From NCBI GenBank assembly GCA_945947575.1, contig CAMEYM010000018.1, positions 4,046 through 68,045 of the forward strand: DNA of 64,000 nt. The letters are read 5' to 3'. The position numbers and the translations under genes are program-made. Positions 1 to 4,826 of this stretch are shown here, piece after piece. Below the pieces are notes generated by a model. The model saw only the letters and a list, made by a program, of their open reading frames with translations. It searched no databases and was not told the origin of the DNA. How positions within the stretch are numbered: the stretch's first letter is position 1; every line of letters begins with the position of its first letter. Source of the stretch: Rhizobium sp. Q54 (GTDB taxonomy: Bacteria > Pseudomonadota > Alphaproteobacteria > UBA2966 > CAIVPW01).

Positions 1-422
1 GGAAGAACAGCACCTTCGCCAGCAGGAAGATTGAAACGCTGCTCGCGAGGACGAGGGACAACCTCAGTTCTTTTCCGGAACGAGATGTCCCAACTATCTC
101 CCGTCAAGAGATCGAGAGCCGATCGAAGGCTGTCAGCTGCCATGCCCCAGCGGTCCGGGTCGTGTACCGGCACGCTGACAGACAGAACTCGCGACCAACC
201 CATCGAAGGTCGCAGCTTTGAGCGGTCGCAGAACTCGACCGCGCCCGCAACGACCATTGCGTCGAACACGACGGGATCCCAATCGGCAACGCAGTAGCTT
301 TCCAAGTCGTGCGTGTTGAAGCTGATGTTGGTTTCGATAGTGCAAGGCAGGCGACCTGCCCGGGGAAAGTGACCAGCCTCGACCACGTCTACGTTCAGAC
401 TCGGCTGAGCGAACGCCTTCAT
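1..422 (-). CDS. QueC-like (QatC/7-cyano-7-deazaguanine synthase-like) protein, N-terminal 140 aa; runs off the window edge
   Basis: Manual translation from ATG 422: MKAFAQPSLNVDVVEAG...DAMVVAGAVEFCDRSKLRPSMGWSRVLSVSVPVHDPDRW...LRSALDLLTGDSWDISF...GEGAVLP. W-x-R...VPV-x-DP-x-x-W and LTGD-x-W match the N-terminal domain of QatC-type QueC proteins; the PP-loop (FSxGLDS) would start just beyond the edge. ATGA overlap with the upstream ORF. Confidence 0.7.
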   Translation of the reverse strand, partial: MKAFAQPSLNVDVVEAGHFPRAGRLPCTIETNISFNTHDLESYCVADWDPVVFDAMVVAGAVEFCDRSKLRPSMGWSRVLSVSVPVHDPDRWGMAADSLRSALDLLTGDSWDISFRKRTEVVPRPREQRFNLPAGEGAVL

Positions 423-982
423 AGGTCCACTCCATCGTCCACGTCCGACTTCTTCTCGACTCTGCGAAATGCGCGCCCCTCTCCTCGGACGATCGATCGC
501 GCAAGTTCCTTTAGCGGCGTCCTGGAAAAGGCGGACTCAATCTCCGAGCGCACGTTGGCGGCACGGTGTTGATTCGATTCGCGGAGGTAGTGCTCCTCAA
601 TATTCTTCGCTGCCCTAGCGCACACGTCAGTCAACAGGTCCTCGACGACGGCCGAAAGATCGACGTCTCTGCCCTCGTTCTGTTCGAGTTCGCAGCGCGT
701 TGCCTCGACGAACGACCGCTGGAGGACGGTCAGGCTTGCATCACGCTCAAGACCTTCCAAGCGCGCTAGTCGCTCGTCCCCGAGTAGGCCCTCAGGGCAC
801 CGGACCACCTTGACGAGCTTGGGCAGCAGCGCGCCACACCCCTCGCCTTCCCAATCGTCGAGCAGCGCCTTCGGAATGGCTGCAACGCATTCGTCCGAAG
901 AGTACGCGTCAACGTCCGCTCGCTCCGCCAAAACGCGCCAGCCCCGGCGCATACCAAGGCTTCTGTGGGGACCATCGCTCAT
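419..982 (-). CDS. Hypothetical helical protein, translationally coupled partner of the QueC-like gene (QatB-like position)
   Basis: 187-aa ORF MSDGPHRSLGMRRGW...; GGAGG RBS at 989-993 (minus); its TGA overlaps the ATG of the QueC-like gene. Confidence 0.75.
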   Translation of the reverse strand: MSDGPHRSLGMRRGWRVLAERADVDAYSSDECVAAIPKALLDDWEGEGCGALLPKLVKVVRCPEGLLGDERLARLEGLERDASLTVLQRSFVEATRCELEQNEGRDVDLSAVVEDLLTDVCARAAKNIEEHYLRESNQHRAANVRSEIESAFSRTPLKELARSIVRGEGRAFRRVEKKSDVDDGVDL

Positions 983-1001
983 AGGCGACCTCCATGTCAG
1001 G

Positions 1002-1031
1002 ATTATCTCTAGAAGTACATGACATTGTCAA
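1002..1031 (-). promoter_or_regulatory. Sigma70-like promoter (TTGACA-N18-GATAAT) overlapped by palindrome TGACA-T-TGTCA (1020-1030)
   Basis: Read directly; lies ~20 nt upstream of the ATG at 982. Confidence 0.55.
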
Positions 1032-1116: not shown

Positions 1117-1355
1117 CCAAAATCAACTACCAGCAGCGCGGCGCCCAGACCCGCGGAAACCGCAGTTCGACCGCTTCCGGGCCGGTCCGCGCAGCCAGAA
1201 TCGCATTTCCCCGCCCCTCTCGGGGCGAGACAACGTTTTTCGCCCGTGTTTACGGTGCCTACGGTGGTCGCGGCCGGCCCTGGGGCGGCGCGCGCCGCGC
1301 TCTCTCAGCGCGCCGATGCGCTCCGTGACCATACATCGCCCATACTTATGGGCGT

Positions 1356-1841
1356 TCAGCTCGCAGGTGCGGACTGCTTCGGCGGAGTGGGTCCGGCGGG
1401 TTTCGCGGGTGCGGCGGCCGGCGGCGCCACGGGTGCGCTGGGCGGCGCGGCGGGCGCAGCAGGCGCCGCAGCAGCGGCTTCCTTGTCGCGGTTGGCGGCC
1501 GCCTTGCGCAGCTTGGCTGTGAGCGAGCGCAGCATGCTGCGCACGAACGGGTCGGAGCCTTCGAGGCGCTTCTGGAATTCGACAGGCGTCAGGACGACGC
1601 ACGTCGTCACCTCTTTGGCGATCGCGGTCGCCGAGCGCGGCTGCGCGTCGATCAGCGCCATCTCGCCGAACATGTCGCCGGCCTTCAGCTGGCCGAGCGG
1701 CACTTCCTTGCCGTCGCGCGTCGTCGAGACTTCGACGGCGCCGGATTGGATGAGGTACGCGCAACGGGGCAAGTCGCCCGCCTTGAAGATGGCTTGGCCG
1801 ATGGAGAACGTCTCGCGCCGCAGTATCTCGCTGGTGGCCAT
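1356..1841 (-). CDS. Cyclic-nucleotide-binding domain protein with Pro/Ala-rich tail
   Basis: IFKAGD...AYLIQSGAVEV...GDMFGEMALIDAQPRSATAIA cNMP motif; start ATG 1841 (MATSEILRRE). Confidence 0.85.
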   Translation of the reverse strand: MATSEILRRETFSIGQAIFKAGDLPRCAYLIQSGAVEVSTTRDGKEVPLGQLKAGDMFGEMALIDAQPRSATAIAKEVTTCVVLTPVEFQKRLEGSDPFVRSMLRSLTAKLRKAAANRDKEAAAAAPAAPAAPPSAPVAPPAAAPAKPAGPTPPKQSAPAS

Positions 1842-2061
1842 GACCGCACCCCAAGGCTCGCATGCGCCGGGCGCGCGCACTGTGGCGCACCGCACAATTC
1901 CACACAATGACCGCGCGGGCGTTCCCTGCGCTGGAACGCCACAAGTACGCGGATTTGCGCGGCGCAATACGCGGGCATGCGCGGCGGAATCCCCCCGCCG
2001 CCCGCGCAATCCCGCGTTATTTGCGCGGCCGTCAGGTGCGCGCGGGCAGTGGCACCTGGTC

Positions 2062-3435
2062 CTAGGTTGGCGCGCGCAGCGGCACGCGACGTTCGTAGAC
2101 GCCGACCGCCACGAACACCGCCGTGGCGACGAGCAGCGACAACAGGAAGGCGTAGTCCTCGTAGTACCGGCCGAACACGAAGCTGCCGGCAGCGCCCAGC
2201 AGCAGCGCGGCGAGCGCCGCGCGCGGTCCCCCGAAGCCGCCGAACAGCCCGACCACCACCGTCACGGCAATGCCGGCGGTGCCCCAGGACGACGCGTACG
2301 ACACCAGCTCGTAGACGCTGTCCGAGCCGGTGGCGATGACGTAGGCGGCGAAGCCGGCGCCCGCGACCGTGAAGCGGGTCGTCATCAGGCGCTGATCGTC
2401 GGATGCCCACTCCATGAGCGGATTGATGAAGGTGCGCGAGGCGAGCGCGGACACCGCGAGCAGCGTCGAGTCCACCGTGGACAGGATGGCCGAGACCAGC
2501 GCGCCGGCGAAGAACACGAACAGCACCGGCGGCAGCAGCTCCTGCGCCAGCAGCGGCAGGAAGGTGTCGTTGAACTCGAGCCCAAGATCGAGGTGCGAAG
2601 CGACCAGGGCGATCAGCGCCGGGATCAACCCGACCACCAGGTAGATGCCGGCCGCGACGAAGCAGGCGTTGCGCGCGATGGCCGGCGTCTTGGCGCCGAG
2701 GAAGCGCGAGATCGCTTCCTGCGCCACCAGCGAGCCGACGATGGGGATCGCCCACGAGTCGATGCGCGACAAGAATCCTTCGTCCGGATGGGAGAACCGC
2801 AGCTGCTCCGGCTCGATCGAGTCGAGCGCCGGCCCGATGCCGCCCATCGCGACGAACACGAACACCAGCAGGATGATCAGTCCGATGATGACGACCGATT
2901 CATGAAACAGGTCGTTGATGGCGTCGCCCAAGAGGCCGCCGAGCGCGGTGTAGAGGACCACGACGCCGAGCGAGACGAGCAGCGCCGTCTCGATCTCCAC
3001 CGGCGCGACCACGGTGATGACTTCGCCGAGGGCGAGCAGCTGCGCCGCCGCCCACATGATCGAGGTTGGGATCAGGATGAGCACCGCCAACAGCTCGACC
3101 AGCCGCCCATAGCGCTCGCGGAAGAAGTCGCCGAGGGTGATGTAGCCGGCCTCGCGCATCTTGTAGGCGATGAGGAAGGCCATGCCGACCAGGCAGATGG
3201 CGTAGCCGAACGGATCGGCGCGGCCGCCGGCCAGCCCCTCCTCGGCGATCGCCGCCGACGAGCCCATGATCGTCTCGGCGCCGAACCAGGTCGCGAACAG
3301 CGAGCCGGACACCAGCACGAGTCCGAGCGAGCGCCCCGCCACCAGGTAGTCGGTCTCGCCGCTGATGCGACGCGCCGCCCAGAGGCTGATGCCCAGCGAG
3401 ATCAGAAAGTACGCAGCAACCGCGACCCACAGCAT
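2062..3435 (-). CDS. Sodium:solute symporter family protein
   Basis: DYLVAGRSL, ATWFGAET, TLGDFFRERYG, SAILSTVDS motifs; many TM helices. Confidence 0.9.
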   Translation of the reverse strand: MLWVAVAAYFLISLGISLWAARRISGETDYLVAGRSLGLVLVSGSLFATWFGAETIMGSSAAIAEEGLAGGRADPFGYAICLVGMAFLIAYKMREAGYITLGDFFRERYGRLVELLAVLILIPTSIMWAAAQLLALGEVITVVAPVEIETALLVSLGVVVLYTALGGLLGDAINDLFHESVVIIGLIILLVFVFVAMGGIGPALDSIEPEQLRFSHPDEGFLSRIDSWAIPIVGSLVAQEAISRFLGAKTPAIARNACFVAAGIYLVVGLIPALIALVASHLDLGLEFNDTFLPLLAQELLPPVLFVFFAGALVSAILSTVDSTLLAVSALASRTFINPLMEWASDDQRLMTTRFTVAGAGFAAYVIATGSDSVYELVSYASSWGTAGIAVTVVVGLFGGFGGPRAALAALLLGAAGSFVFGRYYEDYAFLLSLLVATAVFVAVGVYERRVPLRAPT

Positions 3436-3605
3436 GGCCCACCCCCCGGTCCGCCCATCTGTACGCCGAGTCTGCGCACAAACTCGTTAGCGCGCAATGA
3501 AGGCGCGGACCCGGGGCGGCGCTGGCGAGGCACCGGCGGCGCGTTTATGATCCCGCCGCCGTCGCGCACCGCGCTGGCGTACTCGTTCCCGGACAAGTCG
3601 TCGTC

Positions 3606-4826
3606 ATGTTGAAGCGCATATTCATTGGTGTGTTGGGCGTCATCGCCGTCGTCCTCGTCGTCGGCCTGGCGGTCGCCTGGGTGCAGCGCGACCAGCTGGT
3701 GTTCTGGTGGTCGAGCCCGCGCATCAACTACGGCGAGCAGCGCACCATCATCCCGGTCTACCTGTTCGCCGAGCAGTGGGCCGCGCACCCCGACAAGCGC
3801 GACAACGCCGACCTGGTGCCGCCCGGCATGACCGACAACCAGGCGACCGCGCAGGTGGACGTCTTCTTCATCCACGGCTCGTCGTACTTCGGCTACCAGT
3901 GGAACGCCGAGGTGCGCGACGTCGCGGTGAACACGATCGTCGATGGCCCGCTGATGGCGCTCGACGCCTCCGTCTTCAACGGCTGCTGCCGCGTGTTCGC
4001 GCCGCGCTACCGCCAGGCGCATTTCGCCGCCATCGACCAGACCAGCGGCAACGGCCGCAACGCCCTCGAGCTCGCGTTCAACGACATCACGCGCGCCTGG
4101 GACAGCTACGTGATGGACAGCAACAAGGGCCGCCCCGTCATCATCGTCGGCCACGACCAGGGCGCGGTGCTCGCCCAGCGCCTGCTCGATCTCCGCATCG
4201 AACCGGGCACGCGCCTGTCCGAGCGCATGGTCGCCGCCTACTTGATCGGCGGCGGCATCGCCGAGCGCCGCTTCGGCGGCAGCTTCAAGAACATCAAGAT
4301 CTGCGAGACGGCGACCGATGCCCACTGCGTGGTGGCGTGGGAGACGTTCGTCGAAGGCACCGACCCCGTGGCGCATCCCAACGCCAAAGAGGCGTGGGAC
4401 AATCGCGCCTGGACGTTCCTCGACGAGGAACGCCGCCTGTGCACCAATCCGCTGACGTGGACGGTGAATTCGAAGGCCGACGCCTCCCTGCACCTCGGCG
4501 CGCTGCCGCTGGGCGCCGACATCTCGCTCGGCTTCGGCCGCATCATGGGCGCGCTGCCGACCTCGGACCCGTCGCGCTACAAGTCGCTGCCGGCGCTCAT
4601 CCCGAAGTACACGTCCGCCGAATGCATCGACGGCTTCCTGTACGTGCCGGAGCCCAAGGACGCCGCCTTCAAGACCGGCTGGCGCGGCGAGGGCAACCTG
4701 CACCTCTCCGACATCACCCTGTTCTACGGCAACCTGCGGCAGAACCTGATCGACCGCTCGGAAGCGTTCCTGAAGACCTTCGTGCCCGACTCGCTGCGCG
4801 CCATGCCCGGCGCGGGAGGACGCTAG
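3606..4826 (+). CDS. DUF3089-family alpha/beta-hydrolase-fold protein, membrane-anchored
   Basis: VDVFFIH, RVFAPRYRQA, GRPVIIVGHDQG, VAAYLIG, CTNPLTW, LHLSDITLFY. Confidence 0.8.
   Translation: MLKRIFIGVLGVIAVVLVVGLAVAWVQRDQLVFWWSSPRINYGEQRTIIPVYLFAEQWAAHPDKRDNADLVPPGMTDNQATAQVDVFFIHGSSYFGYQWNAEVRDVAVNTIVDGPLMALDASVFNGCCRVFAPRYRQAHFAAIDQTSGNGRNALELAFNDITRAWDSYVMDSNKGRPVIIVGHDQGAVLAQRLLDLRIEPGTRLSERMVAAYLIGGGIAERRFGGSFKNIKICETATDAHCVVAWETFVEGTDPVAHPNAKEAWDNRAWTFLDEERRLCTNPLTWTVNSKADASLHLGALPLGADISLGFGRIMGALPTSDPSRYKSLPALIPKYTSAECIDGFLYVPEPKDAAFKTGWRGEGNLHLSDITLFYGNLRQNLIDRSEAFLKTFVPDSLRAMPGAGGR

Follow-up and report, generated by a model that had tools for sequence, protein, structure and literature searches.

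A conserved four-gene operon joining a divergent QatC relative to a putative protease-antitoxin and PIN-like toxin in Rhizobium sp. Q54

The window analyzed here, a 64-kb stretch of DNA from Rhizobium sp. Q54 (positions 4046-68045 of contig CAMEYM010000018.1; genome of 2.49 Mb in 40 contigs, 95.67% complete), opens inside an operon encoding, in order, a 187-amino-acid (aa) protein that we call A187, an enzyme resembling QatC of the QatABCD defense system, a protein combining a helix-turn-helix (HTH), an M78 peptidase domain and a UPF0175-like tail, and a PIN-like protein. An initial annotation of the window had described a two-gene module, composed of A187 and a minus-strand open reading frame (ORF) cut by the left edge. 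The pair held, and the size of the unit did not: reading the contig leftward (contig positions 1-7000; window position equals contig position minus 4045) placed two last genes of the operon to the left of window base 1. The genes are laid out as follows.

Window 419..982, minus strand: gene 1, the 187-aa partner protein A187, an ORF starting MSDGPHRSL.
Window 419..422, minus strand: ATGA overlap between the A187 stop codon (TGA) and the enzyme start codon (ATG), indicating translational coupling.
Window 1..422 (ORF 3..422, open at the edge), minus strand: the first 140 codons of the QatC-like enzyme gene, by ORF translation.
Contig 3118-4467, minus strand: gene 2, the full QatC-like enzyme gene, 449 aa; ORF, QatC homology, invariant PP-loop residues and four cysteines.
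Contig 1921-3117, minus strand: gene 3, the HTH-M78-UPF0175 protein, 398 aa; ORF, Pfam and PADLOC matches.
Contig 1334-1900, minus strand: gene 4, the PIN-like protein, 188 aa; ORF, PADLOC match, conserved acidic residues and Atlas look-alikes.

Gene 3 abuts the enzyme gene, and gene 4 follows after a 20-nucleotide (nt) gap, all on the minus strand. The ATGA coupling of the enzyme ORF to the MSDGPHRSL protein had been read correctly and lies at bases 419-422, and the same 4-base overlap joins these two genes in most of the 81 loci compared below. As had also been noticed, the cassette is more AT-rich than the backbone, with a GC content of 0.56-0.63 vs 0.66-0.70 in the window's 4-kb blocks. 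Genes for a cNMP-binding protein, an SSF symporter and a DUF3089 protein lie upstream of the promoter, and neither qatA, whose absence had been remarked on, nor qatD is adjacent.

The enzyme begins MKAFAQ and carries the QatC-type N-terminal signatures recognized earlier in its cut ORF (W76-S-R78, VPVHDPDRW and LTGDSWDISF). A PP-loop and a C-terminal cysteine motif had been predicted beyond the window edge, and both are found in the full protein, as S143-D-G-M-D-S148 and as C305 together with C321-G-I-C324-A-A-C327-LLRR. A 43-sequence alignment of the clade shows no variation at G145, S148 or the four cysteines (C305/C321/C324/C327), and at least 90% of its members retain S143 and D147. The protein matches the PADLOC QatC model (5.7e-30), the NCBIfam QatC model NF041925 (1.1e-32; 113.5 bits, below the 280-bit equivalog cut-off) and the solved QatC chains 9vlk_A (6e-17) and 9zee_B (1.7e-16). 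When the 43 clade members were aligned by hhalign with seven canonical QatC sequences, drawn from genomes with MGTS-type QatB, the match (probability 99.8, E 1.1e-29, 358 columns) spanned the N-terminal extension, the core and the C-terminal extension of QatC. An AlphaFold model of the enzyme (predicted local distance difference test, pLDDT, 89.7) aligned with QatC 9y01_B in Foldseek at E 1.3e-15 (template modelling score, TM, 0.67/0.70; 472 columns); for QueC and Cap9 the match was confined to the model's core. The enzyme is genuinely related to QatC, though divergent. With the QatC of QatABCD it shares the QueC-family PP-loop fold with the same N- and C-terminal extensions and the Zn-Cys4 site (9y01/9y02, 9vlk, 9zee; available portions of PMC13279940, PMC13376578 and PMC13639016), as well as the W-x-R, D-x-W-x-x-x-F, R-x-R-x-x-F, HP and P-x4-TK motifs.

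The pocket sets the clade apart. In QatC, according to the accessible parts of PMC13279940 and PMC13639016, two invariant threonines replace the Tyr/Asp that hold deazaguanine in QueC and Cap9. Where canonical QatC reads LSTRTtHP, the clade reads aYeDYRnHP, and the QatC threonine positions (T-x-T) are occupied by invariant D249 and R251 (D-x-R). We considered Y247-x-D249 as the QueC/Cap9 nucleobase-binding pair shifted by two positions; the alignments put D249/R251, not Y/D, at the QatC threonine sites, and unlike in Cap9 the Y-x-D pair is not at the aligned positions. As judged from these alignments, D-x-R is a third pocket type, distinct from those of QatC and of Cap9/QueC.

Deazaguanine attachment to the partner protein, which the initial annotation had raised by analogy, is left unsupported by this pocket and by the pathway content of carriers. 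The host genome encodes TGT (502 bits, on another contig), and its PF06508 (QueC) matches are the enzyme itself and two other PP-loop proteins at about 20-22 bits; no PTPS/QueD and no canonical QueC were found in this 95.67% complete genome, and the host probably salvages queuine or preQ instead of making it. Among 50 other carrier genomes searched for PTPS/QueD (of 80 fetched; completeness is not given, and several are closed chromosomes by title), 32 had a match and 18 had none. Five of these 18 carry a canonical QueC (E <= 8.4e-52), and 13 have weak partial matches only, at no more than 32.5 bits; all six QueD-positive genomes added as a check have a canonical QueC. The capacity to make 7-carboxy-7-deazaguanine thus seems to be missing from the host and from about a quarter of carriers, and the lack of both QueC and QueD in the host and 13 of 50 carriers speaks against this compound as an obligatory host-made donor.

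The same data bear on whether the gene is a housekeeping or metabolic QueC paralogue, a scarcely credible explanation. It could draw on the Pfam QueC match (PF06508, 22.2 bits, just above the 22-bit cut-off) and on RefSeq product names on plasmids. That match is limited to model positions 134-206, unlike in canonical QueC; the protein has QatC-type N- and C-terminal extensions; the host has neither QueD nor another QueC, though TGT is present; and the gene sits in a defense and mobile context. The locus is neither a canonical qatABCD nor a housekeeping queC, in line with the earlier suggestion of a possibly distinct system. On plasmids, RefSeq names the four products hypothetical protein (A187), '7-cyano-7-deazaguanine synthase' (enzyme), 'XRE family transcriptional regulator' (gene 3) and hypothetical protein (gene 4). 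The enzyme carries the synthase name in NZ_CP044329.1, NZ_CP049219.1 and NZ_CP090091.1, one record calling only its C-terminal 237 codons, in what looks like systematic mis-annotation.

A187 has no sequence match in Pfam, PADLOC, NCBIfam or the PDB, and a PDB profile search returned designed helical repeats only. Fold searches were similarly empty: Foldseek against the PDB gave nothing at E <= 0.001, the best hit of a wide VIA search was at Z 7.7 (designed proteins, 53 residues), and Atlas scores reached at most 0.82, with TM at most 0.42. By these searches A187 is a new family. Relatives are numerous (42 in a word-indexed search; 894 clusters at 50% identity in a profile search at E <= 0.001, with 683 at 1e-10 and 317 at 1e-30), nearly all 185-191 aa long and about 35% identical overall. 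Little or no variation is seen within the family at M1-S-D-G-P-H6, L9, W15, an EEHYLRE motif and a C-terminal DDGV-x-L. The start of A187 lies on the contig in 153 of 161 loci, and the N-terminus reads SDGPH in 132 of them, SDGP[YF] in 19, TDGPH in one and STGPH in one; G4-P5 is present in 153/153. About a dozen of the 150 best A187 relatives, 176-185 aa long, start at profile position 11 (a conserved Met11), probably a mis-called start that hides the conserved tail. Hiding of an N-terminal tail through start mis-calling is likewise reported for QatB in the portions available of the QatB papers.

The predicted structure of A187 (pLDDT 87.6) is all-helical, with nine helices, and residues 1-12 and 174-187 are disordered. 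Like QatB, A187 is a small helical partner encoded directly upstream of the enzyme, translationally coupled to it and fitted with a disordered, highly conserved N-terminal tail. A model of the enzyme-A187 complex scored 0.88 vs 0.00 for the best control, with runs agreeing in at least 77% of contacts and a partner pLDDT of at least 77; 58 of 80 solved complexes attain that mark, as do 2 of 110 mismatched pairs. On the enzyme side, the modelled interface takes in loop 241-247, just before D-x-R, the C-terminal helices 372-407 and the W-x-R region, and on the A187 side residues 6-12 and the helices around EEHYLRE. This use of the active-site loop and C-terminal helices mirrors the published QatBC arrangement as described in the accessible text of PMC13279940. 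A187 is accordingly modelled to bind the enzyme, and a QatBC-like interface is predicted.

Gene 3 carries an XRE HTH and a Peptidase_M78 domain in 33/33 members by Pfam, with an invariant H218-E-x-x-H222, and a C-terminal UPF0175 match in 22/33 members (best E 2.9e-6). PADLOC matches it to RmrA (1.7e-29) and, more weakly, to capP (2.8e-15) and capH (3.3e-4). In the PIN-like product of gene 4, D3, E36, D87 and E89 (D87-G-E89) never vary and at least 90% of members retain D106 and D128; PADLOC gives PDC-S70 (1.5e-6), and the Atlas look-alikes, a lead rather than a test, fall in clusters labelled PIN/DUF3368 (score 0.96, TM 0.94). The available portions of three papers describe matching partnerships: UPF0175 occurs solely next to PIN proteins of the COG2405/DUF3368 type (PMC5499597), Xre-COG2856 fusions have PIN and RelE toxins as partners (PMC2701414), and ImmA-type RmrA proteins are the antitoxins of RosmerTA defense and are also seen with PIN-like domains (PMC10440598). 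Gene 3 thus resembles the antitoxin of RosmerTA (RmrT/RmrA) and the Xre-COG2856 (ImmA/IrrE) proteins in its HTH and M78 parts, HEXXH intact, and its UPF0175-like tail with a PIN-like gene directly downstream recalls the COG2405/DUF3368-UPF0175 pairs. Unlike Rosmer, a two-gene unit, this putative toxin-antitoxin pair always forms the 3' half of a four-gene operon with one operator, and a single fused chain carries HTH, peptidase and UPF0175.

Taken together, we consider it somewhat probable that the operon is an undescribed Qat-type anti-phage cassette, in which a QatBC-like tagging pair is wired to a Rosmer-type protease-antitoxin and a PIN toxin. For this reading we infer that tagging takes place, which acceptor and donor it uses, which way the signal runs and that the cassette serves in defense. 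A187 and the enzyme would form a complex like that of QatB and QatC, in which the enzyme would activate a carboxylate with ATP and join it to the N-terminal tail of A187. PP-loop enzymes prime a carboxylate by adenylation for attack by an amine, and methionine is removed before serine; the acceptor could be Ser2, exposed by loss of Met, or else Gly4 following trimming of the tail. The XRE HTH of gene 3 would bind the TGACA-N-TGTCA and TGACAT sites described below and repress the operon, and its UPF0175-like tail would restrain the gene 4 product, a candidate PIN-like (COG2405/DUF3368-like) nuclease toxin. Upon infection, the state of the A187-enzyme pair (tagging or its loss) would fire the M78 (ImmA/IrrE-type, HEXXH) peptidase. 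ImmA/CapP-type peptidases cleave HTH repressors. Here such cleavage would remove repressor and antitoxin together, derepressing the operon and freeing the PIN nuclease, so that the cell would stop before the phage completes its cycle.

A pattern scan with the A187 alignment, covering one genome per species in 185,579 species, found 234 relatives, of which the best 80 were fetched and, with our own locus, give the 81 loci compared here (one is from a genome flagged unpublished, which adds one to the counts and decides nothing). The order A187, QatC-like enzyme, HTH-M78 protein and PIN-like protein, on one strand, is kept in 77/81 loci, the other four being cut by contig ends, and no extra gene is conserved across the 81. 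A187 stands with the QatC-like enzyme in 81/81. In the opposite direction, a metagenome scan with the enzyme alignment found at least 535 relatives; among the best 80, loci with room for the genes showed A187 upstream in 78/78, HTH-M78 in 71/71 and PIN in 58/58. No locus with room lacks either half, whichever gene the search starts from. The earlier suggestion that the 187-aa protein is the partner of the enzyme is upheld by this strict co-conservation (81/81 and 78/78), by the near-invariant tail and by the predicted binding. It is possible in principle that two independent systems, a minimal QatBC-like pair and a Rosmer-type toxin-antitoxin, merely travel together, each half resembling a system that works alone in the available text of PMC13279940 and PMC10440598; the shared strand, the overlapping or abutting genes, the one conserved promoter/operator standing only before gene 1 and the absence of any locus with room that misses a half make this very improbable.

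The pair had been credited with its own promoter and ribosome-binding site, and both are present, GGAGG at 993-989 and TTGACA-18-GATAAT at 1031..1002, within the following features.

Window 1020..1031, minus strand: -35 box TTGACA (1031-1026) within the palindrome TGACA-N-TGTCA (1030-1020), a putative operator of the cassette's own HTH.
Window 1002..1007, minus strand: -10 box GATAAT, by its sigma-70-like pattern.
Window 994..999, minus strand: promoter-proximal operator half-site TGACAT, between the -10 box and the Shine-Dalgarno (SD) sequence, conserved across loci.
Window 989..993, minus strand: SD sequence GGAGG, 6 nt before the A187 ATG (982-980); an SD-like motif occurs in 110/132 related loci.

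The TTGACA-18-GATAAT site (11/12, window 1031..1002, minus strand) is the sole sigma-70-like site in 4.5 kb, and since 0.9 such sites are expected by chance, the argument rests on its position and not on the count. Between phyla, the 100 nt preceding the A187 start show no other relationship, yet they share the consensus TTGACAtTGTcag...tttttt..tata.ttCTGACAT.ggag. The palindrome TGACA-N-TGTCA is found in 119/130 loci and the proximal TGACA, within -30..-1 of the A187 start, in 120/130; the spacing between the two is 31 bp in 90/109 loci. In the 64-kb window the palindrome occurs once (1020-1030), vs 0.03 expected, and some plasmid copies have a form without the central base. Gene 1 alone is preceded by the conserved promoter/operator. 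The simplest reading of these sites is that the cassette's own HTH would regulate the operon through TGACA-N-TGTCA and TGACAT.

Such an operator also suits an arrangement in two layers, in which the HTH-M78 protein would be a stress- or phage-responsive transcription switch like CapH/CapP of CBASS (cyclic oligonucleotide-based antiphage signaling system), whose cleavage lets the operon be made, and the QatBC-like pair and the PIN toxin would be parallel effectors, with no signal passing from tagged A187 to the peptidase. CapH/CapP is likewise an HTH and metallopeptidase switch attached to a defense operon. The conserved operator overlaps the -35 box and the region of transcript start, gene 3 matches the capP (2.8e-15) and capH (3.3e-4) models, and, in the accessible parts of PMC13279940 and PMC13434339, QatBC alone suffices against some phages and QatD is a parallel unit. 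Against two layers, the UPF0175-like tail and its PIN partner point to direct control of the toxin too (PMC5499597, available portion), and the arrangement leaves unexplained why the enzyme clade is never seen without the toxin-antitoxin half. We regard it as unlikely but credible.

By record titles, the cassette occurs in at least eight phyla (Alpha-, Beta- and Gammaproteobacteria, Acidobacteriota, Chloroflexota, Verrucomicrobiota, Planctomycetota, Binatia, Desulfobacterota and Bdellovibrionota). The four genes recur on plasmids, conjugative ones included, beside AbiE and AbiJ, and 26 plasmid records hold a full-length enzyme. A single-sequence tblastn of A187 found 13 plasmid records vs 26 for the enzyme; three further enzyme-bearing plasmids that we examined all carry the MSDGPH gene (one as a 112-aa frame), so the gap between 13 and 26 reflects sensitivity. 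Three genomes have the enzyme split into two ORFs, and on a Sinorhizobium fredii plasmid the partner frame is just 112 aa, probably as a result of decay. No relatives of the enzyme were found in IMG/VR contigs or in 50,697 phage records. For the neighbors we scanned 146 of 152 nearest-neighbor ORFs, the four longest being left out, of which 81 had a Pfam family at E <= 1e-5, and tallied the types ourselves. Defense or toxin-antitoxin families (43) and mobile-element families (14) make up 57 of these 81.

Defense or toxin-antitoxin neighbors (43): Fic 11; UvrD-type helicases 7; AbiEi 6; AAA_13/15/21-OLD 4; restriction-modification 4; HipA 2; Mrr 2; Abi_C, AbiJ, Piwi, SIR2, PIN7, NYN and Xre-MbcA 1 each.
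Mobile-element neighbors (14): 5 integrases, 3 transposases, 3 resolvases, 2 relaxases and ArdC.

These contexts could alternatively mark a module for addiction or regulation carried by plasmids and integrative elements, a Rosmer-like toxin-antitoxin with an accessory modifying pair that would serve mainly element maintenance or induction. The 26 plasmid records with a full-length enzyme, conjugative plasmids among them, the integrases, relaxases and transposases next door and the low-GC island in the host genome fit such a role, and ImmA/ImmR is an element switch in the available text of PMC10440598 and PMC2701414. Set against this, the flanks vary with no single element type, 43 of the 81 annotated neighbors are defense or toxin-antitoxin genes, none of the 50,697 phage records or IMG/VR contigs holds a relative, and both parents, Qat and Rosmer, are shown defense systems. 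We judge an addiction role quite unlikely. A divergent DUF4172+Fic gene recurs just upstream of the cassette, with Fic in 11/146 neighbors, and may be either part of an island shared in Hyphomicrobiales or a further associated gene. On a Methylocystis rosea plasmid, genes for a ThiF-family adenylyltransferase and a DUF6527 protein lie in the cassette's island, with AbiEii/AbiEi and AbiJ between.

Several observations weigh against the tagging and anti-phage cassette that we favor. A187 is not detectably a QatB: hhalign against seven QatB sequences gave a probability of 3.4, Foldseek returned no QatB match at E <= 0.001, and a second look with VIA at QatB 9y02_A reached a Z of only 4.9 (root-mean-square deviation 5.2) over 144 residues, the longest alignment listed. 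Likewise, the PADLOC QatB hidden Markov model, which finds QatB in 8/401 genomes of the phylum, finds none in the host genome. The N-terminus of A187 is a serine, vs the glycine needed by QatB and CdnD, and its residues 1-5 fall outside the confident contacts of the complex model, a model whose pass may partly lean on solved QatBC structures. The PIN assignment of gene 4 is weak by Pfam (5/39 members, best E 1.4e-4), and DUF3368 appears as an Atlas cluster label and not from hmmscan. The neighbor counts include close relatives and are not independent. Either half could act first, and the HTH-M78 part could be just a CapH/CapP-like transcription switch. Finally, the support for every step is wholly computational, drawn from sequences and structure models.

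Compared with known systems, the cassette differs from QatABCD in having neither QatA (a KAP NTPase) nor QatD (TatD), in the two other genes that are always attached, in a partner that is not recognizably QatB and starts M-S-D-G-P rather than M-G-T-S, and in an enzyme under the equivalog cut-off with an invariant D-x-R in place of the invariant T-x-T of QatC. Type IV CBASS offers a further parallel in Cap9-CdnD, where a QueC-family enzyme acts on the N-terminal tail of its partner by deazaguanylation (bioRxiv 10.1101/2025.04.06.647259, available portion), much as the cassette enzyme may act on the tail of A187; unlike type IV CBASS, the operon has no CD-NTase or Cap10, and its enzyme is QatC-sized, not a minimal Cap9. 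In the accessible text of PMC13329287, only about 34% of the 'QatC cluster' ('Cluster 2') sits with qatA/qatD, and in that of another survey 98.1% of clusters are counted as canonical (PMC13434339). We found no description of the cassette in the literature searched, supplementary tables not being covered; Table S2 of PMC13329287 may list such neighbors.

What QatC attaches to QatB and how the phage is stopped are open questions for QatABCD in the literature, as far as the available portions go. The cassette keeps the QatBC-like core and replaces the accessory genes with a better-understood repressor, peptidase, antitoxin domain and PIN toxin, and therefore toxicity, cleavage and derepression could be used as simple read-outs of tagging. 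In this way it would give a poorly understood kind of immunity a visible switch and killing part. It also widens the rules, with a conserved putative acceptor tail that begins with serine rather than glycine, a third pocket type (D-x-R) and persistence in hosts without the deazaguanine pathway. Nor is it rare, with 234 matches in 185,579 species genomes and at least 535 in metagenomes, its enzyme gene being mislabelled as queuosine synthesis by RefSeq.

A bolder version of the tagging step, which we consider a long shot, makes it an infection sensor with new chemistry. The D-x-R pocket would bind an acyl donor missing from uninfected cells (e.g., a phage-made 7-deazaguanine precursor), the donor would be joined to the Ser-Asp-Gly-Pro tail, and tagged A187 would fire the M78 peptidase, which would destroy its own repressor and antitoxin parts and release the PIN nuclease. 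The idea fits because the host and about a quarter of the tested carriers seem unable to make such a precursor. If true, the cassette would become the first Qat-type system in which the path from signal to effector is complete and the N-terminal acceptor is a residue other than glycine.

Metatranscriptomes hold the stretch in two runs of one study, and one RNA contig of 2,855 nt corresponds to contig positions 2283-5137. All 30 bins, including non-coding DNA, are covered and the RNA contig runs past the predicted promoter, so that DNA carry-over or read-through is possible and we draw no conclusion on expression. At the borders of the host locus we found no tRNA and no convincing flanking direct repeats (matches of 14-28 nt at 69-93% identity), and terminator-like sites are at chance level (4 vs 4.2 expected). 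The contig ends in the 5' part of a 16S rRNA gene (contig positions 1-389, minus strand; Rfam SSU_rRNA_bacteria, 389.3 bits, model 1-416), with about 940 bp of ORF-free DNA between it and the PIN-like gene, and the low-GC cassette therefore stands right beside an rRNA operon. On the other side, window 3606-4826 on the plus strand holds a 406-aa DUF3089/alpha-beta-hydrolase ORF overlapped by long alternative ORFs on both strands, a pattern typical of high-GC DNA and unrelated to the cassette.

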